From: a virus
Taxonomy: Duplodnaviria > Caudoviricetes
Virus record (IMG/VR): IMGVR_UViG_3300031867_000010
Location: 1 to 64,000 of that record
DNA: 64,000 nucleotides
Strand: one strand, 5' to 3'
The notes beneath the pieces are model-generated. The model saw only the letters and a list, made by a program, of their open reading frames with translations, was not told the origin of the DNA and did no database searches. A program made the position numbers and the translations under genes. Positions within the stretch are counted from its first letter, which is position 1. Each line of letters starts with the position of its first letter. Below, in pieces: positions 32,186 through 53,564 of this stretch.

Positions 32186-32249
32186 ATATACAAAAAAAAA
32201 CAAATCTTTAATATTCAATTATAACTATATATAAGAAAGGATAATTATT
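32186..32249 (+). repeat. Conserved promoter/RBS cassette of the MADFN family (also 35840-35903, 44264-44326, 49034-49096 on minus; 51801-51858 on plus)
   Basis: ATAC-A9-CAAATCTTTAATATT...AAGAAAGGA...ATTATGGCT in five copies, containing AACA-N6-TA. Confidence 0.9.
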
Positions 32250-33232
32250 ATGGCTAATTTTGATGAATTATATAATCTTATAGACACATATAAGGAATCA
32301 TATGGGGGGGGGTATATGATTACTCCTTAGATTATTATACAGAAGCACAATATAGCAATGCTAAATCTATAATACAACCATTTAAGACAGAGATTAAAGA
32401 AATTAATAAAAATTTTAATATAGCTAAATCTAATAAAAATAAAATACTAGGTATGAAGTGTATAAAAGAAATGCAAAATTTGATATCAAGATTACAACAT
32501 ACTACAAATTCATTAACACCAGAAGATATTAAGAAATTTGGAATAGGATTGATTGCAAGCTTTGGAACATTAAGTGCAGGAATATTTGCATTTATATCTC
32601 GTAATACAGTAAATAAATATATTGCAAACCTGGATAATGACTTAAAAAAAATTGATGATAGTATTTTACAACTAGAAAACGAGCATCGTAAAGCAGCTTC
32701 AGATGCTGTTAATGCTAATATATATACTAACAAATTAAAGACCGATTGTTATAATAGAATAAGTAATCTCACAGACGTAATATTTGACGTCAACCTTAGT
32801 GAAAATGAAAAAAATAAATATTCCGATGAACTTCAGTCTATTGCTGAGAAACTTGATAAGGCATGTGGTGATCAAAAAAAGGCAGATAAAGAAGCTTTAC
32901 TAAAAAAAAGTAAGTGGGAAAAATCTAAGAAAGATCGAGAAGCTTTCGTGACAACCAGAGATAAGCTTAAAGCAGCCAATCGTATAGGATATGATAAAAA
33001 TGGGAAATTTAGTAAAGAAGAATTAGCACACTATAAAAAAGGAATTCGCAAAACACATGGCATAATTACTGGTATAGGTGCTGGTATAGGATCTACCGTA
33101 GGTGGTCTTACAGCATTGACTTTGAATAAACTTAATGTAAAATATAAACTATGTATAAAAAAGATGAATAAATTCTTACAAGAATGTAATACAGCTTTAC
33201 AATCAATGAAACAAGAAGTAGCTAGTTGGTAA
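32250..33232 (+). pseudogene. MADFN-family paralogue 1, out of frame at the G9 tract (32304-32312)
   Basis: As written it reads MANFDELYNLIDTYKESYGGGYMITP*. One extra G gives YGGGVYDYSLDYYTEA..., joining ORF 32453-33232 (ends QEVASW). Confidence 0.85.
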
Positions 33233-33246
33233 TGTATAGTAATTAA

Positions 33247-33285
33247 TAGAGAATATGCTAGTATATCATACTAGCATATTCTCTA
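33247..33285. terminator. Bidirectional terminator
   Basis: 18-bp inverted repeat between convergent paralogues. Confidence 0.75.
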
Positions 33286-33304
33286 ACTAATGTATCTAAT
33301 TTTT

Positions 33305-34920
33305 TTACCAGCTAGCTACTTCTCTTTGCATTATACTTAATCTCTTTTTAGCATTCTTTATAGCATTCTTTACTCTAGCAAAAGCTATCTTACCATTTAC
33401 ATTAGCTTTACTTAATCCATATCCTATACCAGCACCTATACCAGCACCTACAGTACCTCCAATAGCAGTACCTTTAAGATTAATCTTACCTTTAAGATCT
33501 TTACCATTAAACTTCTTTTTACTATTAGTATTTTTATTATTATTAGCATTATTAGCATTATTATTAGTAACATTACCAATAGGTTCTTGCTCTTCATTAT
33601 TAGTAGTATTATTAGTAACATTACCTATTGGTTCTTGTTCACTTGGTTTCTGTATATTAACATCACGATATACTTTACTACCTACTTTTGTATAGTCATT
33701 AGAACCACCCCTTTTAAGATATATTTATTAGAACCGGAACCCCTTTTTAAGATATATTTACGTCTAGGTTCACTAGGTATATTTTGTTCTTCATTATTAT
33801 TAGTAACATTGCCTATTGGTTCTTGATTAGTTGAATCTTGATTAGGATTTAGGCTATTTAGTAATTTCTTTTCTAGTTCTTGCCCTTTTTCAGCTTGTTG
33901 TGCTTTAGCTTTAGCTTTAGCTTCCTCATTAAGTCTTTCATTTTCCTCTTTAGTAATATACTTACCATCTCTAATAGTTCCTTTTACTTGTGCTGTTAAA
34001 TCATTTATTCCTTTATAAAAATTAAAATTAAAACCATTGAATCTTTTATCACAAGTATCTATAAAATTCAACAGAATTTTTTTATCACTATCAGATATTC
34101 CTGGATGACTCTTTATTACCTTTTTTGAAGGAAGCCATGAAATAATCTTATCAATACTACTAATATTTTTTTGAAGTCTGTTGGATATCATGACTTTATC
34201 TTCATCACTCACATTTTGATCTTTTAATGCATTAATATCGCGTAATACTTGGTAAACTTTCTTATTGGCATCACCTATCATACGTACATGTCGCGAAGCA
34301 CTTTTAGGAGAATACTCTTCTATTTCTTGTTTTTCTTCACCTGATAATGAATTTCGTTGCAATCTCTGACGCATATTTTGCGTATTTCGTTTTTCATGTC
34401 TTTCGTCCAAACTATTATAAAATCCACTTCTACCTGCTTCAATATCTTTTTTAGGTTTATTATGAGTGTCTCGATTAGTCTTTTTACTTGTTTCCATATT
34501 ACGTGCTTCCATATAATAATCATACCAATAATCATCATATGCACTTTCTTTTACTTCTTTACTCTTTTTATTACCTATTATATTACCTATTATACTTCCA
34601 CCTATACCACCAAGTACTGTAGTAATAGATGTTAATAATGCAGAACCATTACCAGAGAAATCATCTGCTGTCATAGAATTAACCATATTATCTAATTTAT
34701 TAATAGTATTAGACATAAGTGAAATACACTTATTGCCTAATGATTTATTCTTATGACGTCTAGCATTAGAATACTCACTATTTATTTGCTTTATTTGTAT
34801 TAATAAAGGTTTAATATCATTAGGAGTATATTGAGATTCTATATAATAATCATTATAATCATATTTATATGATTCTTTATATGTATCTATAAGATTATAT
34901 AATTCATTAAAATCAGCCAT
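33305..34920 (-). pseudogene. MADFN-family paralogue 2, frameshift near 33708-33715
   Basis: ORF 33682-34920 plus a downstream frame encoding KVGSKVYRD...QEPIGN...GTAIGG...QREVASW. One extra base at A4G4 joins them. Confidence 0.85.
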
Positions 34921-34954
34921 AATAATTATCCTTTCTTATAAAATTTATTTTATC

Positions 34955-35839
34955 TTATTTTTTTATCTTATTTAATGCAACTTTAAGTTTGTTTATTTGT
35001 TTTCTTAATCTAGCTATAAGAGTATGAACATTTCTTCTTTTCTTAAGAATTAATGCTGGTATAGTCCCACCAATAGTAGCTCCTGCACCTATATGTGCTG
35101 CTGTACCAAGACTTTGAGATTTTTGAAACTGTTTTAAAGACTTACCTTGTTTTAATGCTTTAACATAAGGATTATTTGGATTCTCTTTACTTAAATATTT
35201 TATATAGTCATCTTTTGAAACTCTATTATTCGCATTATAAAACAAATTTGCTAATGAGTCTTGTTCATACATCAATTTAGCCTCGTCTTTAACATATTTT
35301 TTATAGTGCCTATTATTAAATCCCCAGTTGTCTCCACTATATTTGGTGTCAAGTTTATCATATCTATCAGCTAACTTATCAATCTCACTATCAATCCTTT
35401 TCTTATCTTTAATATCACGATATTCAACATCATCAAATGCAAAATGTTCTGATGCACGGACATCTGTATTTCCAAAATCGTCAGCATCCTTATAATCAAG
35501 GTGCGTTTTCAGCAGAAATGTGAACATTCCACCCAATAATGCACTTACACCTATTATTACTTTACCACAAGTATCTAATGCATTAGGGTTCTTAATCTTA
35601 TCTACTAATCCATCTAATGTATTACAGTCTTTCTCCATAGTAGTAATTAATTTAGAAGCATTCCTAGTATCTCTATTCTTAATAAGATTCTTGCATACTT
35701 TAATATTATTCTTAATAGATTTAACTATAGATTTAAACTCCTCTGCCGCTGGATCAGAAGCTTCTGTATAATAATCATTATATGAATATGATTCTTTATA
35801 TGTATCTATAAGATTATATAATTCATTAAAATCAGCCAT
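34955..35839 (-). CDS. MADFN-family paralogue 3 (divergent body)
   Basis: MADFNELYNLIDTYKESYSYNDYYTEA leader and two hydrophobic Gly-rich helices. Confidence 0.85.
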   Translation of the reverse strand: MADFNELYNLIDTYKESYSYNDYYTEASDPAAEEFKSIVKSIKNNIKVCKNLIKNRDTRNASKLITTMEKDCNTLDGLVDKIKNPNALDTCGKVIIGVSALLGGMFTFLLKTHLDYKDADDFGNTDVRASEHFAFDDVEYRDIKDKKRIDSEIDKLADRYDKLDTKYSGDNWGFNNRHYKKYVKDEAKLMYEQDSLANLFYNANNRVSKDDYIKYLSKENPNNPYVKALKQGKSLKQFQKSQSLGTAAHIGAGATIGGTIPALILKKRRNVHTLIARLRKQINKLKVALNKIKK

Positions 35840-35909
35840 AATAATTATCCTTTCTTATATATAGTTATAATTGAATATTAAAGATTTGTTTTTTTTTGTA
35901 TATAAAAGG

Positions 35910-35949
35910 GGTAAAAATGGTTTAGGGAACTCCCTAAACCATTTTTACC
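35910..35949 (-). terminator. Terminator
   Basis: 19-bp inverted repeat after the 35970 gene. Confidence 0.7.
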
Positions 35950-35969
35950 ACGTTATATCTTTAAACTAT

Positions 35970-37037
35970 TTATTTCTCGTCATTACTATCTTCAGAATTA
36001 CTAACTAATTCTTTCTTCTCTTTTATAAGATTTTCGGCTTTAATTCTATCTGGGTGTAATTTATATGCAGAATTATTTTTCTTAAATCTTTCTATATTTT
36101 CTTCAGTATCAAAATAAGTATAAAATTCATTAATTACACCAACTAATGTGAACTTTTCTTCTTTGGTTGCTTTATCAGTCAATACATCTCTTAAAGCGGC
36201 AAGCAATGATGTTACTAAAATTTTAGATTCTTTTAATGATGTATCACAATATGACACATATCTGATTATAGCATAAATGAAAAAATTATTAAACGGTGCA
36301 TATCTTTCTGGAAGCAATTTCTCTTCTATATTCATAAAAAGATTATGGATATTAACAGGTATTTCAAGTTTCTCAAGTTTCATAAAATATTTCTTAAGAA
36401 TATAATCACCACGTTGTTTATCAAAAAACGTTTCAATCATATTACTTGCTTCTTTATCACCAAATTGTCTCAATCTATCAAGTATACAAGTAAAATTCTG
36501 TGATTTTTCTATTGTATCCAGATCTCTACTCATTTCTTTCTTTTTAATATCATCAGTTTCATTTTCAAGTTGTTTGCGAAGAGTTTTTATTCTTTCAAGT
36601 CTAGCCTCTCTATATTCTGGAGATCTTAATTTATCAATGTAGTTATTTGTTATATTAAGAATATCTTCTTTGGATGATCTTAAAGTTTCCCTATTTTCAG
36701 TAATAAGTTTTATATCATCTCTTAGCTCTTTTAAAAACTCTTTACACCACTCAATAAAACTTCTAGTATCAGATGGATCATTATGCAACTTATAAGATGT
36801 GAGACCATCTTTAACAGAGCCACTTTCTTCTAGCATAACTTGTAAATCCAATAGGGTAAAATTGTCAATTTCTTCATCACTCAATTTAGATACTTTTAAT
36901 GCAAATTCCCATGTGATATTCTCGTTAGCTAAATTTTCCTCAATATCGTTTTGCTTATCATTTATTATAGACTCGTATAATTTAATAAGCTCTTCAAATA
37001 GTTGAGTGTATTCACTTACTGTAGAACTACGACTCAT
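35970..37037 (-). CDS. Hypothetical helical protein
   Basis: AGGAGG RBS before MSRSST. Confidence 0.8.
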   Translation of the reverse strand: MSRSSTVSEYTQLFEELIKLYESIINDKQNDIEENLANENITWEFALKVSKLSDEEIDNFTLLDLQVMLEESGSVKDGLTSYKLHNDPSDTRSFIEWCKEFLKELRDDIKLITENRETLRSSKEDILNITNNYIDKLRSPEYREARLERIKTLRKQLENETDDIKKKEMSRDLDTIEKSQNFTCILDRLRQFGDKEASNMIETFFDKQRGDYILKKYFMKLEKLEIPVNIHNLFMNIEEKLLPERYAPFNNFFIYAIIRYVSYCDTSLKESKILVTSLLAALRDVLTDKATKEEKFTLVGVINEFYTYFDTEENIERFKKNNSAYKLHPDRIKAENLIKEKKELVSNSEDSNDEK

Positions 37038-37314
37038 ATTTAATCCTCCTTTAATCTTATTAAAAATAATGTAGCGTGATATATAATTAATTAAAGTGAT
37101 TAACATTTAAGTAATGATATGTGAATAGCAATTTTTGTCATTTAGTGCGTAGATTAATCAATTTTCCTCCTAAAAAATTTTATAATAATTTTTTTATTAG
37201 TCCTCAGATTTTGAACGAATTTGATAAGTTACTACAGAGTTGCTTGCTATTTATTTCATATCACAAAGATACTCATAGAAAAGTCTATGAGTATCTTTTT
37301 TTTTAACTTAAATA

Positions 37315-39474
37315 TTAAAAGAATAATCCACCATTATTTCCGTCATCCATTCCAAGATGATTTATTTCATCAAAAAATGATAAATCATAATCATTAGATT
37401 CATCATCAAATGTCACTATTTCTTCTTTAGATAAATTTCCAGAGCTTACATTTAATGATGAATTCATTAACTTATAAGTATCTTTTTGGGATTCCAGTAT
37501 AGCATTTCTTAAAATATTCTCATAATTTAATTGTGCTGAAATTTTTCTATCTTCTATTATAGAGTCTGCAACATCAGAAGGAAGTAATTCCTGTAATTGC
37601 TCTCTTGAATACTCTTTGAATAATCCTTTATTTTTCTCTTCAGGTTCTTTTTCTCCAGGAATATATCCAAACATTGGAAGGTTATCACCATGAATAAGGA
37701 CATACATGCCTATAAGATAAGACATGATTGAGTCATCATGGAAACCATCCCCAGCAACAATTTTTCCACTTGTTGATCTAACAAGTCTTGATATATCTCT
37801 AATTATATTTCTAGTAACAAAATCTTCTTTATGGTCTTTAATTCTATCTGCTAATATTGCAAACATTCTTTCTCTTGATTTTCCTTCAGTATACACACCA
37901 GTAAATGATTTTCTAGTAGCATGCTTAGTAAGCATAGAAGTTTGGGTATCGTATTCTTTAAATTTTTCTCCAAGCAAATCCCCAGATTTATCATAATAAA
38001 GTCTTGGTGCTATTCTTGAATTCATAAGATGATCTATAATACCATCACCTATTGAGTTTCTTTCGATGCATACAATAGCTCTAGGAATATAATTTAATAC
38101 AAGTTCGATTATAATTTGTTCATATAAAGTTTCCCCAACGAAATTACATTCAAACTCCATCACAGGTCTTAACGTATATGGATTTATTGCAGTAATTGCA
38201 TTAAAGTCTTTATTAGTACCAGTAGAACAGTCAACTCCAACTACATAAGGAATATTTGCATCTATTTCTTCATATACATCAAATCTAAAATAATCTTTTA
38301 TAAATATTTCCTTTATTGGAAGTTTCATTCTTTCGTTAATATATTCGATGTCTTCTTGATCATAAGGTGATAATGATGAACCATGTATTCTTTGAAGAAG
38401 AATTTCTCTACGGAATGTAAGTTTATCCGTAGTCATATTGTAGACATTTTCAAGCCAAGCGTTATCAAGACCAATTTGATAATATTGAAACTCTATATAC
38501 ACAATATGATTTGAATTACTTGCTGTTGCATAATTTTCCATTTCTTCATCACTCATATCATACATTTTTTCAGTCCATCTAACGCAATTATCTATTAACT
38601 TTTGTGCTGATATACCAGCTTTGGTATCGAGATCTCCTGGAGTCGATGTAAACATTCTTCCAGCAACTCCACCATTTTCTTTAGATAATCTTGCCGCAGT
38701 CTCATATGTAGATATTGAGTTATCTACAATAATATCTATATTCTCAGTAAACTCAGGCTCGTCATAATGTATTGCTGGAGACGTGAGACCTCTTGCAGTC
38801 GACATCGCTTTTGCTGGAGTAGCAGATCCAGCTTTTATAGTTACTTTATTCTTTGTTACTGGATGCTTTATACCAGTAGCATTATCCATAGCTTTCACCA
38901 TTTTTCCAGTATCATCATCTAAAATATATTCAAATCTTAAATATTCTGGAAGTAAGGATAGTTGATCTTTCATTCTTGCAAGGTTTTCTTTTGCATCTGG
39001 TACTTGCTTATTTACAGAAATAAATGTTGAGTTTGTTGTACCAAATGAATATGCCCAGCACCAGTTTGCTATAGCAGATTGGGTTTTTCCTTGCTGACGC
39101 GGAAGACAAAGCCAAGAATCAATATGATGAAAAAATAACCATGCTTGTGCTATATTTCCTCTGTTAGCTTTATACATAGATCCTTCTGGTCTACCAGGTG
39201 CTGGTATTCTTGAAACTTCCCTCAAATAATACCAAGGGTTTCTTCTACACTCTGTTACTACTCTTGATATTTCTTCCTTAGTTAAAGCACAATTACCGTC
39301 TTTATCTACTTTATACGGGTTTATTCCTACTACGGAAGGATCTTTAACTTCAAGCAAAAAATACCAATTCTTTACACCTAAAGTTTTTAAATCATTTGCT
39401 AATTGTAAAAAAGATGTATTTGATGTACCAATATCAAATATTCTATTTTTTATTCTTTTAAGTCTAGTTCCCAT
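37315..39474 (-). CDS. terL: Terminase large subunit
   Basis: NPWYY, Walker A PRQQGKT, Walker B IHYDE, coupling TSTP, nuclease VGVDCSTG..DF and HDDSIM. Confidence 0.92.
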   Translation of the reverse strand: MGTRLKRIKNRIFDIGTSNTSFLQLANDLKTLGVKNWYFLLEVKDPSVVGINPYKVDKDGNCALTKEEISRVVTECRRNPWYYLREVSRIPAPGRPEGSMYKANRGNIAQAWLFFHHIDSWLCLPRQQGKTQSAIANWCWAYSFGTTNSTFISVNKQVPDAKENLARMKDQLSLLPEYLRFEYILDDDTGKMVKAMDNATGIKHPVTKNKVTIKAGSATPAKAMSTARGLTSPAIHYDEPEFTENIDIIVDNSISTYETAARLSKENGGVAGRMFTSTPGDLDTKAGISAQKLIDNCVRWTEKMYDMSDEEMENYATASNSNHIVYIEFQYYQIGLDNAWLENVYNMTTDKLTFRREILLQRIHGSSLSPYDQEDIEYINERMKLPIKEIFIKDYFRFDVYEEIDANIPYVVGVDCSTGTNKDFNAITAINPYTLRPVMEFECNFVGETLYEQIIIELVLNYIPRAIVCIERNSIGDGIIDHLMNSRIAPRLYYDKSGDLLGEKFKEYDTQTSMLTKHATRKSFTGVYTEGKSRERMFAILADRIKDHKEDFVTRNIIRDISRLVRSTSGKIVAGDGFHDDSIMSYLIGMYVLIHGDNLPMFGYIPGEKEPEEKNKGLFKEYSREQLQELLPSDVADSIIEDRKISAQLNYENILRNAILESQKDTYKLMNSSLNVSSGNLSKEEIVTFDDESNDYDLSFFDEINHLGMDDGNNGGLFF

Positions 39475-39560
39475 TATTTTACCTCCTTAAATAAACGTAT
39501 CTGATGTTCGAAATTACATTTATATAATTTAATAAATATTTTTAAAAAGGAGGAATTGGT

Positions 39561-40259: not shown

Positions 40260-40262
40260 ACC

Positions 40263-41696
40263 ATGAATGATTTTTTCACAGAAGCATATTATGGAAAAAC
40301 ATCTACGATAAAAGAAATAGAAAAAGTTATTGGTGCATTAACTGAACTTTCAAAAAAAGATCCACTTGCAGATTATACTAATCACCCACTTAATAAAAAA
40401 CTTGAATCGTTATTCGTAAAGCAATTTGGATTTCACAAGATTGATATTGTGTGGAAAAGGTCATCTGAAAGTGGTCCTATTATTTGTACATGGGTATCAT
40501 TAGATACTGCATTAAAAGGAAAAAGTATGTATGCATTGGATACAACTGGGTATTACGATAAAAGTCATACACATGATGTATACATGATGTTATCATCAAC
40601 ATTTGCAGGTCATTATAATGTAAGTGCTGAAGAATACACAGCAGTTATATTACATGAAATCGGTCATAACTTTAGTACTGGTTTTTATAATAGAATTAAT
40701 TATTTAACATCGGTACTAAATATTGTTATGAGACCAGTATTTGGAACGAACGCTGAGGGAGAAACAGTTCAAACAGGAAATACTATTGATGTTTCACAAA
40801 CTCTAAAATTTACAGCTTTAAATGTTCTTACTACAACAAAACTTGGAAAAGGATTTTTTGCGTTATGTAATAGAATATATGATAAACTTTTAGATCAAGT
40901 TCCAGTATTAAAAGAAATTGCAAGCGTGATCACCAAAGTTGCAAATAAAGTAAATGTTGTGTGGACAAGACTTAATTTTATTAATATTTCATTGAAGCTT
41001 CCCATGGTAATTTTAATGTCACCACTAACACATTTACAACAAGTAGTATCAAGAAAAGAAGAAGCATTTGCGGATTCGTTTGCAACGGCGTATGGATATG
41101 GCGTTCCACTAAATACAGCACTTGTGAAGTTATCACGAGCTGGATATGATAAAACTGTATCTTTATTTAATTATGATAAATCTGGATTTGCAAAAATAAT
41201 CACAGATATAATGATGGCAGAACTTACTATGTTTGATGTATTTGCTTCAGGTGGTGCATCACATGGTAGTACTGGAACAAGAATTGCGACAGCAATAGAA
41301 TTAATAAATAGAGAAATTGATAATGAGCAACTTCCAACAAGTGTTAAAAAAGATTTAAAATTGCAATTAGGATCTCTTGAAAAAGTTTATAATGGATATG
41401 TTACTGCTGAATATAATGGAGATCATTTAAAAATAACAGCATTTGTTAGAAAAACTATTGAAACAGTGTTTGGAAGAAGAACAGATGTTATTGCAAAACT
41501 TTTCCCTGATTTTTATGCAGGGTATACTGAAATTTCTTACAAAGATAGAAAGCCTTTATTTAGAAAAGAATCCGTAGAAACATTTGAAGAATCTGAATTA
41601 TTTAGTTATCTTGATTATATGGTAAAAGAAGCTTACGATAATAAAATGATAGATGATTATGACATGAGTGTTCTTATGGAAATTGCCAATAACTAA
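40263..41696 (+). CDS. Zincin-like metallopeptidase (probable virion protein)
   Basis: AVILHEIGH, EEAFADSFA..YG and a downstream His (SHG...RI). Confidence 0.7.
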   Translation: MNDFFTEAYYGKTSTIKEIEKVIGALTELSKKDPLADYTNHPLNKKLESLFVKQFGFHKIDIVWKRSSESGPIICTWVSLDTALKGKSMYALDTTGYYDKSHTHDVYMMLSSTFAGHYNVSAEEYTAVILHEIGHNFSTGFYNRINYLTSVLNIVMRPVFGTNAEGETVQTGNTIDVSQTLKFTALNVLTTTKLGKGFFALCNRIYDKLLDQVPVLKEIASVITKVANKVNVVWTRLNFINISLKLPMVILMSPLTHLQQVVSRKEEAFADSFATAYGYGVPLNTALVKLSRAGYDKTVSLFNYDKSGFAKIITDIMMAELTMFDVFASGGASHGSTGTRIATAIELINREIDNEQLPTSVKKDLKLQLGSLEKVYNGYVTAEYNGDHLKITAFVRKTIETVFGRRTDVIAKLFPDFYAGYTEISYKDRKPLFRKESVETFEESELFSYLDYMVKEAYDNKMIDDYDMSVLMEIANN

Positions 41697-41698
41697 AA

Positions 41699-41742
41699 AT
41701 ATATAGATATGATGATTTGGTTACCATCATATCTATATATTT
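41699..41742. terminator. Bidirectional terminator
   Basis: ATATATAGATATGATG/CATCATATCTATATAT inverted repeat. Confidence 0.7.
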
Positions 41743-42986
41743 TAACCCTCATATCCAGGCGGGTATGAATCAATAACTAATCTAAGCCTATCATCACTTC
41801 TTATTTTTCTTTGCATACACATTGTTAATAACTGTTGTAATTTACTTCTGTACTGTATTAAATAATTCATACTGTGAGGTACGTCATATTTTCCAGAATA
41901 CTTATCATTTTGTAAAATATCAATGTAGTATTGAGCAGTATCTAATTTATTTCGTATGTATGAAAGAATGAGTAATTTGTCATCGTTATTTTTAATATCA
42001 TCTATTTGTACTTGAATGTAATCAATAGCATATGGATCAAGAGGTTTTAATTTCTTTTTAAATATAAAAAACTCTGTATAATAATTATCTTCTATATCAT
42101 GAATCTTTTCTGTGAAATAGTTCATTCTGATTTCATCAGATATATAGAAATCACTCTGATTTGACTTCTCTGTATAGAATGCTCTTGTTGATTTCAAATA
42201 TTCTTTAATATATTCACTTGGTGTTGTAAGTATCAATTTATCAAGTAAATTCTGATTTAACTTACCTTGTCTTTTTTCAAAATTACTTATCATTTCTGTA
42301 GAGAATTTGAAAACTTCTTCCATATTCTTTTCTGGAGTCATAATGGAAGGTTTTGATATCTTATTAAGTACTGAGTAAAGTTCTGGTCCATATCCAAGAT
42401 TTTTAGCATATTTGTCTGCTTTATACTCTTCTTTTATATTAGAAGAAGTTGTACAAGAATCTATTATGGGTAATGACATCATTGATGAAAATTTGTCATT
42501 CTTCAAAATCAATTTAAATTTTGTAGAAAGATTGGCAAATTCATATTTCATTACTCTAGCAATTCTTTGGGGTATACTATTACTATAAACAGTATGACCT
42601 ATTTCATGAAGTAAAACAGCAGTACATTCTCTAGCCGAAAATGGTGCTAAAAAATTATCAATCATTCGTCTATCTATTTCAACAATCCATGATTTATTTT
42701 TTGACCAAACTTCTGCTATTATAGAAGAAGGACTTTCATTTACTATTGATTGAATTATTTTGTTTACTGTAGATATTTCTGGGAATACAGACATTAAACA
42801 AACTGGATCGGTATTTTTTGTTTTAAGTATTCTTATGGTAAATGATTGATTATACATATTGGTTAATTCTTTTTCTATCTGTACGATAGCAGCTTGATTA
42901 TTGATATTTGCTTTTAAATCCAAAAAGGCTTTATCAATAGTTTCAAGCCTAGCTTTTAATCTAGTTTTTTTAGTCTCTATAATCAT
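41742..42986 (-). CDS. Zincin-like metallopeptidase (probable virion protein)
   Basis: AVLLHEIGH and EEYKADKYA..LGY. Late motif at 43011-43022. Confidence 0.7.
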   Translation of the reverse strand: MIIETKKTRLKARLETIDKAFLDLKANINNQAAIVQIEKELTNMYNQSFTIRILKTKNTDPVCLMSVFPEISTVNKIIQSIVNESPSSIIAEVWSKNKSWIVEIDRRMIDNFLAPFSARECTAVLLHEIGHTVYSNSIPQRIARVMKYEFANLSTKFKLILKNDKFSSMMSLPIIDSCTTSSNIKEEYKADKYAKNLGYGPELYSVLNKISKPSIMTPEKNMEEVFKFSTEMISNFEKRQGKLNQNLLDKLILTTPSEYIKEYLKSTRAFYTEKSNQSDFYISDEIRMNYFTEKIHDIEDNYYTEFFIFKKKLKPLDPYAIDYIQVQIDDIKNNDDKLLILSYIRNKLDTAQYYIDILQNDKYSGKYDVPHSMNYLIQYRSKLQQLLTMCMQRKIRSDDRLRLVIDSYPPGYEG

Positions 42987-43045
42987 GTAACTACCAGCCT
43001 TTCTTATTATTATTCAAATGTTTTTTGGTGATGACTATTCATATA

Positions 43046-43085: not shown

Positions 43086-43098
43086 CTCATATAACATA

Positions 43099-44263
43099 TT
43101 ACCAACTAGCTACTTCTTGTCTCATCACTGTTAATCTCTTTTTAGCATTCTTTATAGCATTTTTTACTCTAGCAAAAGCTATCTTACCATTTACATTAGC
43201 TTTACTTAATCCATATCCTACACCAGCACCTATACCAGCACCTACAGTACCTCCAATAGCAGTACCTTTAAGATTAAATTTCTTTTTGCTATTAGTAGAT
43301 GTAGTATTACCTATTGGTTCTTGATTAGGTTGTTTATTAATATTCACAGGTCCTACACCTTTACCATTATTAGGTTGTCTACGTTGTCTTTCAGGAATAT
43401 TATCCTTTGTAAGATTTACTCTATTCATTTTGTACGGATCATTGTCTGATAAATTGTATCTATTAATATTTTCTTGACGTTGGTACATATCTGTTAAGTC
43501 ATCATAATCATTACCAATAGGATCACTTTTATCATTCATATTAATATATTGACCAGTACCTGTCGATCGTAAGTAGTCAGAGTAATAACTTTTAGCCTTA
43601 GGACCACGTTTTTTAATAACGTAATTTGATACTTTTCTATCTCCATCTGCAATACTGCTTCGGTTTTCAATCTTTTTCAAAGCTTCATCACCAGAAGCAC
43701 GTAATTCATATCTATCTGTTCCATCTGTAATTGACGGTATTGGTCCACTATATCTTACTTTAGGTTTATCTTGTTGTGTACTAGCATTACCTATTGGTTG
43801 TGGCTCAATAGGAGAAGCATTTTTTTTTAGGTTTTTTAGGTTTATTACGACGTGCTTCCATATAATAATCATACCAATAATCATAATATACACTTTCTTT
43901 AACACTATTAGCATTTTTATTACCTATTATATTACCTATTATACTTCCACCTATACCACCAAGTACTGTAGTAATAGATGTTAATAATGCAGAACCATTA
44001 CCAGAGAAATCATCTGCTGACATCCTATTAACCATGTTATCTAGTTTATTAATAGTCTTAGACATAAGCGAAATACACTTATTACCTAATGACTTATTCT
44101 TAGTCTTTCTAGCATTAGAATACTCATGGTTTATCTGTTTTATCTCAACTAATAAAGGTTTAATATCATTAGGAGTATATTGAGATTCTGTATAATAATC
44201 ATTATATGAATATGATTCTTTATATGTATCTATAAGATTATATAATTCATTAAAATCAGCCAT
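43099..44263 (-). pseudogene. MADFN-family paralogue 4, out of frame at the A9 tract (43820-43828)
   Basis: ORF 43805-44263 (N cassette) and ORF 43099-43914 (payload plus C cassette) join if A9 becomes A8, giving PKKPKKNASPIEPQ. Confidence 0.85.
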
Positions 44264-44347
44264 AATAATTATCCTTTCTTATATATAATTATAATTGAAT
44301 ATTAAAGATTTGTTTTTTTTTGTATATGAAATGCGAGTTTCATACTT

Positions 44348-45076: not shown

Positions 45077-45130
45077 AATGTAATCTCCTTCTTATTATTT
45101 TTACTTAATTAAAAATATGTTTTGAAGAAG

Positions 45131-45171
45131 AAGTATATCAAGCAAATGTAATACATTTGCTTGATATACTT
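45131..45171 (-). terminator. Terminator
   Basis: AAGTATATCAAGCAAATGTA/TACATTTGCTTGATATACTT inverted repeat. Confidence 0.75.
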
Positions 45172-45189
45172 TAATTAAAAATTATATTT

Positions 45190-46308: not shown

Positions 46309-46384
46309 AATAGTTAAATCCTTTCTATAAATTTTATTAATTTATAAAGTATTACAGAAATGTTTGTAATTCGTATCTAATTTT

Positions 46385-49033
46385 TTACCAGCTAGCTACT
46401 TCTCTTTGCATTATACTTAATCTCTTTTTAGCATTCTTTATAGCATTCTTTACTCTAGCAAAAGCTATCTTACCATTTACATTAGCTTTACTTAATCCAT
46501 ATCCTACACCAGCACCTATACCAGCACCTACAGTACCTCCAATAGCAGTACCTTTAAGATTAAATTTCTTTTTAGTATTAGTAGATGTAGTATTATCTTC
46601 ATTATTATTAGTAGCATTACCTATTGGTTCTTGATTAGGTTGTTTATTAATATTCACAGGTCCTACACCTTTACCATTATTAGGCTGTCTACGTTGTCTT
46701 TCAGGAATATTATCCTTTGTAAGATTTACTCTATTCATTTTAGGTATTTCTTGTTCTTCACTATTAGTAGCATTACCAATAGGTTCTTGTTCACTTGGTT
46801 TCTGCGTATTAGCATCACGATATACTTTGTTACCTACTTTTGTATATTTATTAGAACCAGAACCTCTTTTTAAGTTATATTTACGTCTAGGTTCACTAGG
46901 TATATTTTGTTCTTCATTATTATTAGTAACATTACCTATTGGTTCTTGATTAGGTTGTTTATTAATATTCACAGGTCCTACACCTTTACCATTATTAGGT
47001 TGTCTACGCTGTCTTTCAGGAATATTATCCTTTGTAAGATTTACTTTATTCATTTTAGGTATTTCTTGTTCTTCACTATTAGTAACATTGCCTATTGGTT
47101 CTTGATTAGTTGGTTCTTGTTTAGCAAGTTTAGGACCACGCTTAGGATTTAAAGTATTTAGCATTAAATCAGAAGTTGGAACGCCGTATCTATTTCTCTG
47201 TACATTTAAAAACTTATTCTGTGATCTAATTGTATTTAAACTATTATCACCAGATGGTTCATAGTACATATTATTGGAAGTTAAATTTCTTGAATTTGCC
47301 TTAGGCATATTTTGTTTAATATCCACATGACTTATCGGTCCTTGGTGTTCAGGTGGTTTGGGCTTGTCTTGAATTTTTTTGATATCAATGTTTCTTCTAC
47401 GGATTTCATCATTTACAGAATTCCATTGTGAAATATTATGATAGTATCTTTTACTTTCTTTTTTTGTAAGATATTTGTCAGTGAATATTGATCTATTAGT
47501 TAATGGTCTACGTTGATTAATAGTATTGTAACTTTTATCATTAATAGTATCAATATATGATTTAAGTCTTATAAGATCATTATCTGACAAAGTTTGAATT
47601 CCTGAGCTAAATGGATTAGTGCTACCTTTACCATTCCTGTACACTTTCTGCATAATATAATTAATATCTTTATTGGCTTCTTGTATCTCTTTCTTATATT
47701 GGTCTTTTGTTATATTTCTTGAAGAAGGCATTTGAGTTTTTTTATTAACTTCATCACTCATATTTTTAATAGTTTCTTTATCAAATTTATATAAAAATTT
47801 TCTAGTACGCCTGCCGTTGTTGTTCATATGAAAATCAGTGGCAGCAACTCTAATAGCATCAATCGCCTTATTATATGCCTTATAATATTCAATGTCATGC
47901 TTATCTAGTCCAGATTTTTGTAGTATTTCTTTATCCAAAAATTGTTTTATTTCATCTTTATTATGGATGTTGCCATTTTCTTTATCAATATCAATTTTAC
48001 CAAAGCCATCTATATAAACACCATCACTGCCAACTTTTAACCAAGAATATTTACGTTTTGGTGTAGTATTAGTGGTAGCATTACCAATAGGTTCTTGTTC
48101 ACTTGGTTTATTAACATCACGATATACTTTGTTACCTACTTTTGTATATTTATTAGAACCAGAACCCCTTTTTAAGTTATATTTACGTCTAGGTTCACTA
48201 GGTATATTTTGTTCTTTATTATTAGTAGCATTACCAATAGGTTCTTGTTTAGCTTGGTGTTTATTCATATCTTCCACTATTTTTAAAGCCTTATTGAATT
48301 TGATACTCAACATATCAATTTCATTATGTATATTTGTATACTTATTCTTTTTATCATTTAGCTTTGGTTTATTTTTTTTTATTATTTTAAAAAAATCTGC
48401 AATTACACTACTCTTCCCTGGTTGATTAGAATAATTTTTCATAAAACTATTAACTGCATTTTTGTCGGTTCCATTACTAGCAATTATTCTATCCAAATTA
48501 CTATTGATATGACCTATATTATATGCTAATCTTGGTATTTTATTGGTATAATAATCAAATAACTGTGGAAACTGTTCACGAGCTTCTTTTATTTTCTTAT
48601 CTTCAGAATCAGATGCTTCCATATAATAATCATACCAATAATCATCATATGTACTTTCTTTTACTTCTTTATTAGCATTTTTATTACCTATTATATTACC
48701 TATTATACTTCCACCTATACCACCAAGTACTGTAGTAATAGATGTTAATAATGCTGCTCCATTACCAGAGAAATCATCTGCTGTCATAGAATTAACTACG
48801 TTATCTAATTTATTAATAGTCTTAGACATAAGTGAAATACACTTATTGCCTAATGATTTATTCTTAGTCTTTCTAGCATTAGAATACTCACTATTTATTT
48901 GCTTTATTTGTATTAATAAAGGTTTAATATCATTAGGAGTATATTGAGATTCTGTATAATAATCATTATAATCATATTTATATGATTCTTTATATGTATC
49001 TATTAAATCATATAATTCATTAAAATCAGCCAT
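46385..49033 (-). CDS. MADFN-family paralogue 7 (882 aa, six QEPIGN modules)
   Basis: Intact N and C cassettes, with internal direct repeats of ~150 bp. Confidence 0.9.
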   Translation of the reverse strand: MADFNELYDLIDTYKESYKYDYNDYYTESQYTPNDIKPLLIQIKQINSEYSNARKTKNKSLGNKCISLMSKTINKLDNVVNSMTADDFSGNGAALLTSITTVLGGIGGSIIGNIIGNKNANKEVKESTYDDYWYDYYMEASDSEDKKIKEAREQFPQLFDYYTNKIPRLAYNIGHINSNLDRIIASNGTDKNAVNSFMKNYSNQPGKSSVIADFFKIIKKNKPKLNDKKNKYTNIHNEIDMLSIKFNKALKIVEDMNKHQAKQEPIGNATNNKEQNIPSEPRRKYNLKRGSGSNKYTKVGNKVYRDVNKPSEQEPIGNATTNTTPKRKYSWLKVGSDGVYIDGFGKIDIDKENGNIHNKDEIKQFLDKEILQKSGLDKHDIEYYKAYNKAIDAIRVAATDFHMNNNGRRTRKFLYKFDKETIKNMSDEVNKKTQMPSSRNITKDQYKKEIQEANKDINYIMQKVYRNGKGSTNPFSSGIQTLSDNDLIRLKSYIDTINDKSYNTINQRRPLTNRSIFTDKYLTKKESKRYYHNISQWNSVNDEIRRRNIDIKKIQDKPKPPEHQGPISHVDIKQNMPKANSRNLTSNNMYYEPSGDNSLNTIRSQNKFLNVQRNRYGVPTSDLMLNTLNPKRGPKLAKQEPTNQEPIGNVTNSEEQEIPKMNKVNLTKDNIPERQRRQPNNGKGVGPVNINKQPNQEPIGNVTNNNEEQNIPSEPRRKYNLKRGSGSNKYTKVGNKVYRDANTQKPSEQEPIGNATNSEEQEIPKMNRVNLTKDNIPERQRRQPNNGKGVGPVNINKQPNQEPIGNATNNNEDNTTSTNTKKKFNLKGTAIGGTVGAGIGAGVGYGLSKANVNGKIAFARVKNAIKNAKKRLSIMQREVASW

Positions 49034-49105
49034 AATAATTATCCTTTCTTATATAGTTATAATTTAAATATTAAAGATTTGTTTTTTTTTGTATATGAAT
49101 GGGGT

Positions 49106-49148
49106 AATTAAAGTAACAGCATATTTTTAATATGCTGTTACTTTAATT
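49106..49148 (-). terminator. Terminator
   Basis: AATTAAAGTAACAGCATATT/AATATGCTGTTACTTTAATT inverted repeat. Confidence 0.75.
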
Positions 49149-51720
49149 ATTTTTCTATTATAATTTCATTAACCAAATCACTTTTATCTATCTTAGATCC
49201 ATCTATACTAATTGCATCTACAGGATAGGATGAAAACATATTATTATGCGATATTATAAATAATTGCTCAGCATTTATCATTTCAAGAAGTCTTTCTATC
49301 ATAGCTATAAAATTTGATCTGTTAGATTCATCGAGTACCGAATCCAATTCATCTAAAAGCATAATATTATATTTAGACATACTCTGAAATGATATAGCAA
49401 ATGAGAGCGTTATTGAGAAAAATGATTTCTCACCATCAGAAGCATATCGTATATCTGGAATCTCCTTACCATCTTTAATAAATGGAATGGTAAAACTATT
49501 TTCATTTATATCAAATTTTGATACATACTTTTCACCACTGTATATTTGATCCAATAAATCATTTACTACACTTAGTGCCTTTTTTAAATACATATCTATG
49601 AATATTAAAGGAATCCCATCATTTGGTGACAATGAATTCTTAAGCAAAACCCAACTATCATAGAATTTTCTATAAGTCTTTAAATATTTACTTGTATTTT
49701 TAAATGTTAGTATATTAAATTCTAGTTTACTTATTTCATTAGATAAATTAACCTCATCTCTTTGAAGATTTACCTTTTTGAAGGATTTATCGTTTTCTTC
49801 TTTTAATAAGGTTTCCCTAGTTTCGACATATTCTTTATTCAATTTATATTTCTCTTCAAGTAAATCTTTTTCTTCAAGAATTTCTATATATTCATCTATA
49901 TTTTCAAGTTCAACGGAATATTTTTTATTAGTTTCAATAAGTCTATTATAATCATTTTTGTAATTATTATATTTATAATTGGATATATTTAACTTATTCT
50001 CTAAAGAAGTCTTACTATTTAATAAATAATTTACAGATGAGTTATTCACAATATTATCTTTTTCTTTTATTTTTTCATCTAATGTTACTTTCATATTTAG
50101 ATAATTTTCATAATCTGTTATAAAAGCCAGTTCATTAAAAAAATCTTTTTGATTATATATCGGTTGACATTTGGATATATTATCCAATAGCGTCTTTACT
50201 ATAAAAGATTCTTTAATATATTTTGGAAGTTTTTCAAACAAATCTTTCTTTTGTGTAAATGAATTAATCACTTCTTTTATTGTTAGGTAAGACATCCTTA
50301 TATATGAAATATACTCATCATCATAGGTTATACTGTCAAATGATAACTTACTTATATCAATAAATTCATCAATAATTTTTTTATATACACAGTTATCACA
50401 CGATGGTTTTGATTTTAAATTATATTTTGATAAAACCGACTGTATAACTTTTTTAGAAGATTTTAATTCATTATTCTCTTTATCCTTTTTAGCAGCATCC
50501 ATTATATACTCAGAAATATCTTTCTTCTTTTCTATAATATTAATCGCCTCTTTAATAGGCTTACTTCCAAAGCTATATATGTTATTTAGTGCATTTTGTT
50601 TTTCTTTTAAAAAGACTAAGGTATTATTTATATCTTCTTTCGTATAATTTATTTTCCCAGTATAATCTGCATATACAATATCAAGTTCGTTTATCTTTTT
50701 TGTGAGTTCTTTAATATAATCATCAATCCCATCAATGTCAAGGTTTAGTTCTATTTTAGATAACTGATTATTTATTTCATCCAAATCATTTTCGTATGAA
50801 TTTATCAAGTTGAGTTCATTATTTATAAATTCTTTAGATATTTTTATTTTTTCCTCATTATTAGTAAACTCTTTTAAAATATACTCTTTATCTTTTTTGA
50901 GACTTTCTATAGATTCATCATTAGTTTTTTTATTAAGTTTCAGCAATTTCTTGTAAGCATCTTCCATATCTTTTTTACATTCAACAGGGATATTAGAAAG
51001 TTTATATCTAATTAATGTAATATCCTTATCTAGTTTTGATATTGATTCTTTTAATGAAACTAAAATATCTTTTTTCTTCGTAAGTTGTTCTTTACTTTCA
51101 TCCAGATCTTTTACAGGGTTTTTATTTAGTTCATCTGTAGAATGGCTTATAAGAGTTTTTAGTGTAGACAACTCTGTATTTATTTTTTTATAGCACTTTA
51201 AATAAATATTAGTATCATCTAAAAGTTTGGACATAAAGGCTTTTCTTTCAGCACTCTTTAAATCTATCATATTTACAACACTATTCCCGAGCCTTACAAG
51301 TTTCATATACTCTTGCTCAAGTTCAAGTTCTGTTTTCACACATTCTTTAAAACTTGTGACATTACCGTTAGGGTTTAATTCTTCACCATTTTTCTTTATA
51401 AAACTTTTTACAGTATGAGTTTTCTTAGATGGTGAATAAAAATGATCTATAACATATTCGTTTTCGTTATCAATAATGACTATTTTCTTATGCCCAGATT
51501 TCCCTTCTTGTATAATTGGAAGAGCATCTCTTTCATCAATAGTTCCTAAAGTCGCAAATGGTTGTAGTTGAGAAAGTAGAACTGTTTTACCCTTACCATT
51601 TGGACCGACTATTAAACATATTTTATTTTTTGATTTATTAAAATCAATATGAATATAATCTAATTTCATTGCTGACTTTACACCAGCAAAATTTTCAAGT
51701 TCTAGTTCAGTTATTCTCAT
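49147..51720 (-). CDS. sbcC: SbcC/Rad50-like ABC ATPase (recombination exonuclease subunit)
   Basis: ENF, Walker A GPNGKGKT, coiled coil with CDNC hook, signature ASDGE, Walker B LLDELD, ISH. Confidence 0.9.
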   Translation of the reverse strand: MRITELELENFAGVKSAMKLDYIHIDFNKSKNKICLIVGPNGKGKTVLLSQLQPFATLGTIDERDALPIIQEGKSGHKKIVIIDNENEYVIDHFYSPSKKTHTVKSFIKKNGEELNPNGNVTSFKECVKTELELEQEYMKLVRLGNSVVNMIDLKSAERKAFMSKLLDDTNIYLKCYKKINTELSTLKTLISHSTDELNKNPVKDLDESKEQLTKKKDILVSLKESISKLDKDITLIRYKLSNIPVECKKDMEDAYKKLLKLNKKTNDESIESLKKDKEYILKEFTNNEEKIKISKEFINNELNLINSYENDLDEINNQLSKIELNLDIDGIDDYIKELTKKINELDIVYADYTGKINYTKEDINNTLVFLKEKQNALNNIYSFGSKPIKEAINIIEKKKDISEYIMDAAKKDKENNELKSSKKVIQSVLSKYNLKSKPSCDNCVYKKIIDEFIDISKLSFDSITYDDEYISYIRMSYLTIKEVINSFTQKKDLFEKLPKYIKESFIVKTLLDNISKCQPIYNQKDFFNELAFITDYENYLNMKVTLDEKIKEKDNIVNNSSVNYLLNSKTSLENKLNISNYKYNNYKNDYNRLIETNKKYSVELENIDEYIEILEEKDLLEEKYKLNKEYVETRETLLKEENDKSFKKVNLQRDEVNLSNEISKLEFNILTFKNTSKYLKTYRKFYDSWVLLKNSLSPNDGIPLIFIDMYLKKALSVVNDLLDQIYSGEKYVSKFDINENSFTIPFIKDGKEIPDIRYASDGEKSFFSITLSFAISFQSMSKYNIMLLDELDSVLDESNRSNFIAMIERLLEMINAEQLFIISHNNMFSSYPVDAISIDGSKIDKSDLVNEIIIEK

Positions 51721-51858
51721 AAATAACCTCCATTATAAATATAGAAATATTTACTATTATGTGAACCTTAAAATATTTATTTATGGTTATCACTCCATTT
51801 ATATACAAAAAAAAACAAATCTTTAATATTTAATTATATAAGAAAGGAAATTTGTATT

Positions 51859-53496
51859 ATGGCTGATTTTAATGAATTATATAATCTTATAAATACATAT
51901 AAAGAATCATATGGGGGGGGGGTATATAATTACTCCTTAGATTATTATACAGAATCTCAATATACTCCTAATGATATTAAACCTTTATTATCTAGTATAA
52001 AACAGATAAATAGTGAGTATAATAGTGCTAGACGTCATAAGAATAAGTCATTAGGTATGAAGTGTATTTCACTTATGTCTAATACTATTAATAACTTAAG
52101 TAGTATGGTTAATTCTATGACAGCAGATGATTTCTCTGGTAATGGTTCTGCATTATTAACATCTATTACTACAGTACTTGGTGGTATAGGTGGAAGTATA
52201 ATAGGTAATATAATAGGTAATAAAAATGTTAATAGTGTTAAAGAAAGTACATATGATAATTATTGGTATGATTATTATATTGAAAAGTTTAATCCTGAAG
52301 GTAAAGCAGATAGTGAATTAAGTGAAGAAGAACTTAAAGCATCATATGCTAAAGATAGAGAAGCTAGTCCACAAAAGGGAAAGAATAAGTATGGTGATAT
52401 TAGAGTAAAATTTGGTAAAAAAGATAAGATGATATATACAAACAAATACCCTGAAGGGAAAAAGTTTTCAGAAATGAAGTTCTTTAGTAATTTTAAGGAC
52501 GATGGTGAAGATGAAAGCGATGATAAAAATACAAGACGTGTAGTTGATAATACTTTAAGACGAGCAAGTAGTGATGGAAAGCCTCGTCAATTAACTGACT
52601 CGCAGATGAAGGCTCAGAAATCAAGATACACATATGATATTGATCCTAATACAGGTAAGAAAATAAATGTTAGAAAACAAGAAGAGTCAAAACGTCAAAG
52701 AAGTCACCCATTAAAAAATGAAGATGATCGTAAAGCATTTGGTTTGTTAATGAATAAAATTTATAAGAATGGTAATGAATTGGCTAAACAACAGGGTGGC
52801 AGTGGAGATGCTTTTGAATTAGGAATCACGACTTTATCACATGATGAGCTGAAATCTCTCAACAATTATTATCAAAACGTACCTTTAAAGACTGACTCAA
52901 ATTTCTTTGGTAGGTTTATAAGTAAAAATAAAGAAACGGATAATAGAAAAAGTAAAAAAGAAATTAGAAAAAATAATAAAAAAAATAATACAAATCAGAA
53001 AAATATTAAAGTAAATACTTATGAGGATAAAGATAACCAAGTAAAACTACGAAATGGCATTATTAAATATGAAATTGAAAGGCGTTTAAAGAACGATATT
53101 GATAATGAATATGCTGATATGGATCCTAGTCGTAGTCATGATGAAGATAAACCACAATATAAGGAACAACCTAATCAAGAACCAATAGGTAATGTTACTA
53201 ATAATACTACTAATAATGAAGATCAAGAACCTATTGGTAATGCTACTAATAATGCTAATAATAATAAAAATACTAATAGTAAAAAGAAGTTTAATGGTAA
53301 AGATCTTAAAGGTAAGATTAATCTTAAAGGTACTGCTATTGGAGGTACTGTAGGTGCTGGTATAGGTGCTGGTATAGGATATGGATTAAGTAAAGCTAAT
53401 GTAAATGGTAAGATAGCTTTTGCTAGAGTAAAGAATGCTATAAAGAATGCTAAGAAAAGATTAAGTATAATGCAAAGAGAAGTAGCTAGTTGGTAA
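51859..53496 (+). CDS. MADFN-family paralogue 8 (in frame with G10 tract at 51913-51922)
   Basis: YGGGVYNYSLDYYTES leader, N and C cassettes intact. Confidence 0.9.
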   Translation: MADFNELYNLINTYKESYGGGVYNYSLDYYTESQYTPNDIKPLLSSIKQINSEYNSARRHKNKSLGMKCISLMSNTINNLSSMVNSMTADDFSGNGSALLTSITTVLGGIGGSIIGNIIGNKNVNSVKESTYDNYWYDYYIEKFNPEGKADSELSEEELKASYAKDREASPQKGKNKYGDIRVKFGKKDKMIYTNKYPEGKKFSEMKFFSNFKDDGEDESDDKNTRRVVDNTLRRASSDGKPRQLTDSQMKAQKSRYTYDIDPNTGKKINVRKQEESKRQRSHPLKNEDDRKAFGLLMNKIYKNGNELAKQQGGSGDAFELGITTLSHDELKSLNNYYQNVPLKTDSNFFGRFISKNKETDNRKSKKEIRKNNKKNNTNQKNIKVNTYEDKDNQVKLRNGIIKYEIERRLKNDIDNEYADMDPSRSHDEDKPQYKEQPNQEPIGNVTNNTTNNEDQEPIGNATNNANNNKNTNSKKKFNGKDLKGKINLKGTAIGGTVGAGIGAGIGYGLSKANVNGKIAFARVKNAIKNAKKRLSIMQREVASW

Positions 53497-53564
53497 AAAA
53501 TTATAAAATTTTATAATTTTACATTTTATATAATAAATTTATTATATGAAAGGAATAATTACTT

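Follow-up and report, generated by a model that had tools for sequence, protein, structure and literature searches.

Jumbo phage heads contain tens of megadaltons of poorly understood protein, and the rules for entering the head are known only for T4 and, in part, for phiKZ and SPN3US. In T4, the internal proteins IPI, IPII, and IPIII together with Alt carry a common 10-aa leader, the capsid-targeting sequence (CTS), which ends with Glu and is joined to divergent basic bodies in a phage with a gp21-type prohead protease; these proteins are expressed late and co-ordinately, and their set varies between related phages (PMC9026906; PMC5694885). The heads of SPN3US and phiKZ contain paralog families of 2-20 members with identical N-terminal 15-mers and propeptides of ~125 aa, and an ejection protein with a transmembrane segment (PMC5694885). 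Here, we describe a family of mosaic genes from a 64,000-nt stretch of viral DNA, bases 1-64000 of the IMG/VR record IMGVR_UViG_3300031867_000010 (hereafter the window). The record is linear, 134,577 nt long, ~30% in GC content and 55% complete (CheckV), and a fragment of the beta subunit of a multisubunit RNA polymerase, a PhuZ-like tubulin, and a gp21-type prohead protease mark it as a jumbo phage of the phiKZ/AR9 type. We tentatively favor, as the best placed of several explanations, that this lineage-specific, probably late family encodes internal head proteins of the ejection or inner-body type in an AR9-like jumbo phage and evolves by gene conversion.

A sequence-only reading of the window had listed eight paralogues, P1 to P8. 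Translation revealed open reading frames (ORFs) with the claimed architecture at all eight positions, and a search of the whole record added five, so that the family has at least 13 members occupying ~14.8 kb, or ~11% of the record (Table 1). Their products range from 192 to 882 aa, and their neighbors are core phage genes or fellow members. A member starts with an acidic leader (MADFNELY), followed by a helical hairpin, a Gly-rich hydrophobic helix (helix 1), an Asp/Tyr spacer running to YY-M/I-E, a variable middle, a Gly-zipper helix (helix 2), and a basic C-terminal helix, which ends with EVASW in the core subfamily. The leader is kept in 11 of the 13 members in the record and in four related metagenome proteins, and almost all of them have a conserved Glu at its end (position 16/17; Y-K/R-E or YY-T-E). 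A second YY-x-E occurs after helix 1, ~145 residues into the protein. In P6, the member at 69314-70105, the metagenome protein P0014, and a small leaderless ORF of a related contig (L014:4442-4756), another conserved end module, ..YES..YG-E/D-I..E.ER..LL, is found, and the family therefore has alternative ends to EVASW.

The two hydrophobic segments (hydropathy 1.0-2.4) are present in nearly every member. An AlphaFold2 model of a 203-aa member, with a predicted TM-score (pTM) of 0.60 and a predicted local distance difference test score (pLDDT) of 74-89 at residues 30-110 and 170-200, superposes over the range 38..203 on three-helix bundles of 73-78 residues with root-mean-square deviations of 1.1-1.6 A. 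Because of this superposition, the hairpin is predicted to pack on the C-terminal helix, and the model implies that the two form one folded unit into which the middle is inserted as a loop. The co-variation of the N and C ends described below agrees with such packing. Foldseek searches against BFVD and PDB returned nothing at E<=0.001.

The middles had been regarded in the sequence-only reading as effector-like payloads, unrelated to one another apart from shared QEPIGN modules. They are 64-81% polar, Asn/Lys-rich, and of low complexity, with a net charge up to +43 and a pI of 9.2-9.8 in most members (range 7.0-9.8). No domain match was found for them in Pfam, PHROG, or ESM Atlas features; for P3 and for the middle of P7, the Atlas gave no usable feature match and structure rows with TM of <=0.35 by query and <=0.43 by match. 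The middles fold poorly (the Atlas model of P7 has a pLDDT of 0.48) and look disordered. For these reasons, namely basic low-complexity sequence, poor folding, and lack of a domain match, the payloads do not look like effectors. The modules, on the other hand, are real: the middles of the core subfamily are built from ~50-aa units bounded by QEPIGN(A/V)TN, arranged as A...B-A-B in P7, as one B in P4, and as a broken A in P2. Thus, the middles are not wholly unrelated, since P2, P4, P7, and P8 share such units and the P4 middle shows 38% identity with a portion of P7. The DNA at the QEPIGN junctions is repeated ten times, a footprint of unequal crossing-over. A protease site between QE and P was considered and rejected because only PIGN is conserved across subfamilies, the preceding residues being variable (QQP, PQP, SDP).

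In ten members, a block of ~65 nt before the ATG is almost identical (CATATAC-A9-CAAATCTTTAATATT...AAGAAAGGATAATTATT-ATG). Its exact 15-mer AACAAATCTTTAATA is found 10 times in the 134.6-kb record, in every case 40-50 nt 5′ of a member ATG; the copies in the window precede P1, P3, P4, P7, and P8, matching the five near-identical promoter blocks noted earlier. Member ATGs have the motif AACA-N6-TA 42-56 nt upstream. At a distance of 34-61 nt, it also precedes the protease, portal, sheath, fiber, and one head-protein gene; replication genes have the early motif TATATTAT or neither motif. In AR9, the 94 mapped late promoters used by the non-virion polymerase have the consensus AACA-N6-TA/G, and the late class takes in 41 of 43 virion proteins as well as lysis genes (PMC5312081). 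Since the block holds this late-promoter motif, which also precedes structural genes, late and co-ordinated expression of the family is likely; both features of an AR9-type late gene, the motif upstream and the RNA polymerase beta fragment, are found in the record. As a separate observation, a subset of early promoters has a C8-C10 run six bases upstream of TATATTAT (GTATAA-Cn-AAATGA-TATATTAT), and in relatives this element sits back-to-back with the late promoter of the family.

The mosaic structure proposed from the sequence, with the P7-type leader and N cassette but the P8 tail in P2, and the P3 leader but the P7 B module and tail in P4, was borne out by repeat analysis. N cassettes are 89-94% identical over 300-345 nt, and C cassettes extend over ~190-260 nt; the tails of P2 and P8 are 98% identical over 263 nt including an exact run of 208 nt, and the promoter and leader of P3 are 98% identical to those of P4 and 97% to those of P1. 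Recombination tests gave the same answer. Among the four core copies, 20 parsimony-informative sites between the promoter and the spacer support all three possible pairings, and they fall into seven spatial blocks as against 14 expected by shuffling (runs test p=0.0008); some adjacent sites may be single events, which weakens this p-value, but the incompatibility stands. Furthermore, P8 lies outside P2+P4+P7 in the N-body tree (support 97/92), whereas P2 and P8 are sisters in the C-cassette tree (100/98). The approximately unbiased (AU) test rejected P2+P7 for the C cassette (p=0.002) and did not reject a P2+P8 clade for the N body (p=0.295), and the conflict between the two ends therefore rests on branch support and the C-side test. 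Recombination between copies, as the sequence-only reading had supposed, is accordingly evident.

A free exchange of payloads between universal flanks is another matter. Constant ends, variable middles, and recombination are all present, but the similarity of N hairpins and that of C segments co-vary by subfamily (14 members; Mantel r=0.87, p=0.0002), and in each member the N and C types belong to the same subfamily. This co-divergence indicates that exchange proceeds by homology-dependent gene conversion and module duplication rather than by free swapping. Neither silent cassettes nor immunity-like partners are present. Polymorphic toxin and antigenic-variation systems (Rhs/CDI/LXG; pilE/pilS, vls) also combine constant and variable parts with demonstrable recombination between copies; unlike them, the present family has no toxin domain, immunity gene, or silent donor, both of its ends are constant, every copy has a promoter, and the variable part is of low complexity.

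The family is rare. Pfam hmmscan of the eight members gave no match at E<=0.01, and no PHROG family was matched. A profile search of 1.84 billion representative proteins returned 19 matches at E<=0.001, of which 13 are the record's own (ORF pieces of broken genes counted separately), two are noise, and the remaining four (P0003, P0014, P0015, and P0016) are genuine members, contributed by a related phage that occurs in ENA and JGI metagenomes. Searching JGI metagenomes with a degenerate form of the leader uncovered four loci, L011 to L014, and IMG/VR yielded one family fragment, L005; the exact leader DNA pattern had 0 matches in IMG/VR, and when the core N cassette was used in a word-based protein search, all matches were proteins of this genome. 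The nearest large terminases (TerL) are those of Bacillus phages BpSp and AR9/PBS1 with merely 32-33% identity, and 10 kb of the locus gave zero matches by megablast against 50,697 phage records, so that this uncultured AR9/PBS1-like phage represents an unsampled branch. A tblastn search of P3 against the same records also gave zero matches, and no member was found in a profile search of the whole BpSp genome; genes of ~250 aa adjoining the BpSp terminase were rejected as members, being unrelated repeat proteins.

Comparison with the related phage provides the clearest view of how the family evolves. The bodies of L011 (= P0003) and L012 are clearly orthologous to P1 and P3, respectively. However, the leader is CDLISIYKESY in all three leaders of the related phage and YNLIDTYKESY in this phage, and the members with a poly-G insert encoding Gly-Gly-Gly are P1 and P8 in this phage and the P3 orthologue and L014 in the related one. 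Because the leader variants are genome-specific while the bodies are orthologous, and the insert resides in different members, leaders and promoters are homogenized within each genome and exchanged across subfamilies. Synonymous divergence (dS) between P1 and L011 differs six-fold along the gene: the N flank has a dS of 0.14 (confidence interval, CI, 0.05-0.27), the middle one of 0.82 (CI 0.54-1.41), and the C flank one of 0.53. Between P3 and L012, the successive values are 0.22, 0.17, and 0.02. P6 and L013 have both ends in common, and L013 has ~400 residues more between the hydrophobic helices (~40 vs ~410 aa). The 949-aa product of L013:6001-8850 bears at its C-end a second, leaderless copy of the scaffold, whose hydrophobic segments lie around residues 804 and 880. 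P6 and P5, which are neighbors in this phage, may be a split form of such a fusion, the similarity of P5 to that part being weak. For the genes on either side of the orthologues in L011 and L012, no counterpart exists in the 134.6 kb, which means that the loci are either non-syntenic or beside genes in the missing half of the genome.

Three of the 13 copies are frame-broken, each by a 1-nt change at a homopolymer: P1 has G9 where P8 has an in-frame G10, P2 has A4 in place of the required A5 within a tandem duplication of 33 nt, and P4 is broken at an A9 run. Random sequencing error is unlikely to account for all three because the largest other ORFs of the record are open. G10 is in frame in P8, L012, and L014, and the tract is absent from P0003/L011, the intact orthologue of P1. 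Runs of G or C of 8 or more occur in this AT-rich genome only in the leader of the family and beside early promoters. Poly-G phase variation operates in the receptor-binding genes of Campylobacter phages. The present case is similar in that a long G tract in a structural-type phage gene sets the frame by its length (G10 in, G9 out); here, however, the tract lies in the leader, the phage is AT-rich, and one tract length per gene is known from assemblies.

The head explanation is favored because the late promoters are common to structural genes, an acidic Glu-ended leader exists along with a gp21-type protease, YY-x-E recurs after helix 1, the bodies are basic and disordered, and families of head paralogs have been published. 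According to this explanation, the non-virion RNA polymerase of the phage would switch on all copies together from one conserved late promoter. The acidic leader of 16-30 aa (MADFNELY...Y-K/R-E / YY-T-E) would act like the CTS of T4 or the long propeptides of phiKZ/SPN3US and bring the protein into the prohead, where the gp21-type protease, the candidate enzyme for leader removal, would cut after Glu. The N-terminal hairpin and the basic C-terminal helix would form a small helical bundle, with the two Gly-rich hydrophobic helices flanking a basic, Asn/Lys-rich, mostly disordered loop (the "payload"). Such a loop would be suited to lie along packaged DNA and might exit the head with it; any membrane step would be conjectural as well. 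The diversity would arise as a side effect of having many similar copies in a genome proficient in recombination: gene conversion would homogenize promoter, leader, and cassettes, unequal crossing-over at QEPIGN(A/V)TN junctions would duplicate or delete 50-aa modules, and homopolymer slippage would silence individual copies.

The likeness to T4 internal proteins consists of a short conserved Glu-ended leader on divergent basic bodies, a gp21-family protease encoded in the same genome, a set that varies between related phages, and late, co-ordinated expression, which is probable here. There are also clear differences: the sequences are dissimilar, T4 has three to four such proteins as compared with at least 13, and neither hydrophobic helices nor a constant C-terminal cassette are found in the T4 proteins. 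The present proteins have mostly basic middles as expected of a small basic packaged protein of the T4 type, yet they vary widely in size and have hydrophobic helices. With phiKZ and SPN3US, the family shares the multigene nature and variable copy number of jumbo-phage head proteins, exemplified by family A (phiKZ_IP, PF12699; inner-body gp93-95, 162, and 163; SPN3US gp53/54) and family B (2-20 members) (PMC5694885). The propeptides of ~125 aa in SPN3US gp53/gp54, whose identical N-terminal 15-mer has cleavage motifs (PMC5694885), may be compared with the ~145 aa that cover leader, hairpin, helix 1, and YY-M-E here. Unlike those families, the present one has two Gly-rich helices bracketing a variable loop, and PF12699 is unmatched in the record (27-bit cut-off). 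Multi-copy, leader-tagged late or head protein families of large myophages are therefore an already known kind. New here are the family itself, a scaffold that is constant on both sides and whose Gly-rich helices enclose a variable loop, concerted evolution that can be demonstrated for promoter and leader, and frame breaks at homopolymers, among them a poly-G tract kept in a relative. To our knowledge, neither concerted evolution of promoter and leader at the DNA level nor homopolymer breaks have been reported for the phiKZ/SPN3US families.

Several points weigh against a location in the head. A six-frame search of the whole record for phiKZ_IP (PF12699) gave 0 matches at E<=1, and the members have neither homology to T4 internal proteins nor a Pfam or PHROG match. 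The candidate Y-x-E site differs from the known motifs (L/I-x-E in T4; S/A/G-x-E in phiKZ), and its ~10-fold higher frequency in the family than in the remaining proteome is exaggerated by the common ancestry of the members. The three-helix-bundle matches are generic (Z <=9.4, below helical-bundle noise), hence uninformative on function, and the models are of low to middling confidence. Helix 1, with a hydropathy of 1.5-2.4 over 19 aa, is possibly a true membrane span; the frame-broken copies could mean decay of the family; late genes of AR9 include lysis genes; and the record lacks the major capsid gene, leaving the head-gene context incomplete. If the head location is true, the family would provide a new and clear candidate targeting leader in the AR9 branch, placed on at least 13 bodies and useful for work on cargo loading. 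The genes also offer an unusually clean case of concerted evolution in a virus genome, with promoter and leader homogenized within the genome and orthologous bodies diverging, and candidate homopolymer switches in a structural-type phage gene.

The strongest alternative, though an unlikely one, is that the products are late non-virion membrane proteins of the infected cell, such as holin- or antiholin-like, superinfection-exclusion, or envelope-remodeling proteins, in which the Gly-rich helices are real spans and the leader is a cytoplasmic regulatory or assembly tag. The paired hydrophobic segments with a helix 1 able to span, the use of late promoters for lysis genes in AR9, and a highly basic C-terminus as in holins (net +8 over 35 aa) would suit such proteins. 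The loop (+10 to +43) and the C-tail are, however, both strongly basic and fit neither topology of an ordinary two-span protein, breaking the positive-inside rule either way. Moreover, no signal peptide is present, helix 2 is weakly hydrophobic (1.1-1.5), and the best match to Gly-zipper_Omp (PF13488), at residues 827-848 of P7, reaches 16.4 bits against a cut-off of 25 bits. For lysis or exclusion, families of at least 13 paralogues with products as long as 882 aa are not known. Foldseek rows to the ClyA/Hbl/Nhe family and syntaxins might be counted in favor, but they are weak (E 0.009-0.2, TM below 0.45) and were taken as noise. Should the proteins nevertheless be of this type, they would represent a new and highly expanded late function.

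Rather more doubtful is the full model of the sequence-only reading, an adaptive system of packaged, membrane-inserting carriers whose swappable effector payloads are varied by flank recombination and turned ON/OFF by poly-G tracts against host defenses. Mosaicism and leader exchange are real, the payload length differs ~10-fold between the probable orthologues P6 and L013, the G10 tract is kept in genes of two relatives within a 30% GC genome, and orthologues stand among different neighbors. Against this, the middles are disordered-looking and without an enzymatic or known anti-defense domain, N and C ends do not recombine across subfamilies, and each copy has its own promoter, which leaves no layout of silent donors and an expression site. 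By the word-based protein search, one genome only carries the core subfamily. The ratio of nonsynonymous to synonymous divergence (dN/dS), 1.7 in the first part of the P3 middle, would suit an adaptive system, but a high ratio at near-zero dS also fits relaxed constraint and recent conversion. Equally doubtful is a wider version built on the head explanation, in which self-diversifying, head-packaged carriers would have a split-bundle scaffold and membrane-active Gly-zipper helices delivering fast-evolving basic loops with the DNA, and in which conversion, QEPIGN shuffling, and poly-G/poly-A slippage would re-pair and switch copies as bet-hedging against host defenses.

It is improbable that the products are virion proteins outside the head, namely tail-lumen, tape-measure-associated, or baseplate/pilot proteins whose hydrophobic helices breach the envelope. 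The members have late promoters, P1 has one weak PHROG match to a tape-measure family (E=0.0017), and BFVD rows include tape-measure and pilot proteins (E 0.3-0.7), but all of these matches are at noise level. The copy number and the range of 192-882 aa are unfit for length-determining or stoichiometric tail parts, and a cleavable-looking acidic leader common to the copies is typical of head-core targeting.

That the mosaic arose from chimeric joins across repeats in short-read metagenome assembly is very improbable, as independent JGI and ENA assemblies show the same architecture, promoter block, and leader variants, as all exact family repeats other than one are <=126 nt, short enough to be resolved by a graph of k=127, and as swapped exits of the remaining one, an exact inverted repeat of 208 nt, would invert the ~20 kb between its copies and leave both proteins essentially unchanged, even though that repeat exceeds the probable k and four contig ends coincide with family repeats: L014 ends (6066) 2 nt past the G10 tract, the first base of L005 falls within a C cassette, and the record ends (134401-134577) within an upstream repeat that is found again in front of the late-promoter block of L011, L014, and L005. 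The value of k is suggested by the start of the record (window 1-127), an exact 127-nt copy of two internal sites, 58670-58796 and record 128680-128806. Because contigs of this phage group tend to break inside family repeats, in the upstream element or directly after the poly-G tract, the family is probably under-counted in metagenome assemblies. The 208-nt inverted repeat comprises the tails of P2 and P8 (window 33348-33555 and 53246-53453); homologous recombination could invert the segment between its copies, and the assembly may show one orientation only. Other long exact repeats measure 161 nt (58636-58796 / record 128680-128840) and 329 nt (record 126589-126917 / 127946-128274).

Table 1. 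Family members, their promoter blocks and cassettes, and other features of the record. Positions are those of the window, which coincide with those of the record, unless another sequence is named.
Feature	Position	Strand	Description
P1	32250..33235	+	Frame broken at G9 (32304-32312); -1 frame from 32306 to stop 33235; C-end EVASW
P2	33305..34920	-	P7-type leader and N cassette, P8-type tail; frame broken near 33700
P3	34955..35839	-	Intact, 294 aa, second subfamily; C-helix end KIKK; orthologue L012
P4	43099..44263	-	P3-type promoter and leader, core N cassette, P7-type B module and tail; broken near 43830
P5	44348..45076	-	Leaderless scaffold copy, 242 aa, directly downstream of P6
P6	45190..46308	-	372 aa; scaffold and acidic Asp/Tyr-rich C-extension with second-type end module
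P7	46385..49033	-	882 aa; QEPIGN-bounded modules A (269-318, 702-754) and B (650-701, 755-806)
P8	51859..53496	+	Intact, 545 aa; G10 (51913-51922) in frame, encoding Gly-Gly-Gly
Additional members	record 68448 (+), 69314 (+), 89299 (-), 129104 (-), 131430 (+)		Whole-record search
Putative late promoter and 5′ untranslated region of P1	32180..32249	+	AACA-N6-TA, then AAGAAAGGA, then ATG
Same block, other members	35840-35907 (-), 44264-44333 (-), 49034-49101 (-), 51790-51858 (+)		
N cassette of P8	51940..52304	+	Hairpin, hydrophobic helix 1, Asp/Tyr spacer to YY-x-E
N cassette copies	34474-34853, 43823-44202, 48584-48966	-	
C cassette of P8	53238..53500	+	Gly-zipper helix 2, basic helix, EVASW
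C cassette copies	33301-33563, 43090-43333, 46378-46619	-	
Prohead maturation protease	24850..25773	+	phrog_3014 9.5e-19, phrog_207 8.4e-13; late-promoter motif at -45
Large terminase (TerL)	37315-39474		
Early promoters with C-run	record 101942-101951, 119170-119177 (outside the window); L005:7241-7249; L007:11-20		

In addition to the genes mentioned above, the record is assigned to the phiKZ/AR9 type by its large terminase, an NAD-dependent DNA ligase, a topoisomerase II, an SbcC-like protein, and an ORF of 3430 aa. This uninterrupted ORF (7538-17830, +) has neither the late nor the early promoter motif within 110 nt upstream. Two adjoining divergent genes at 40263-41696 (+) and 41742-42986 (-) both match phrog_2767, a group of unknown function, and form another paralogous pair in the region.

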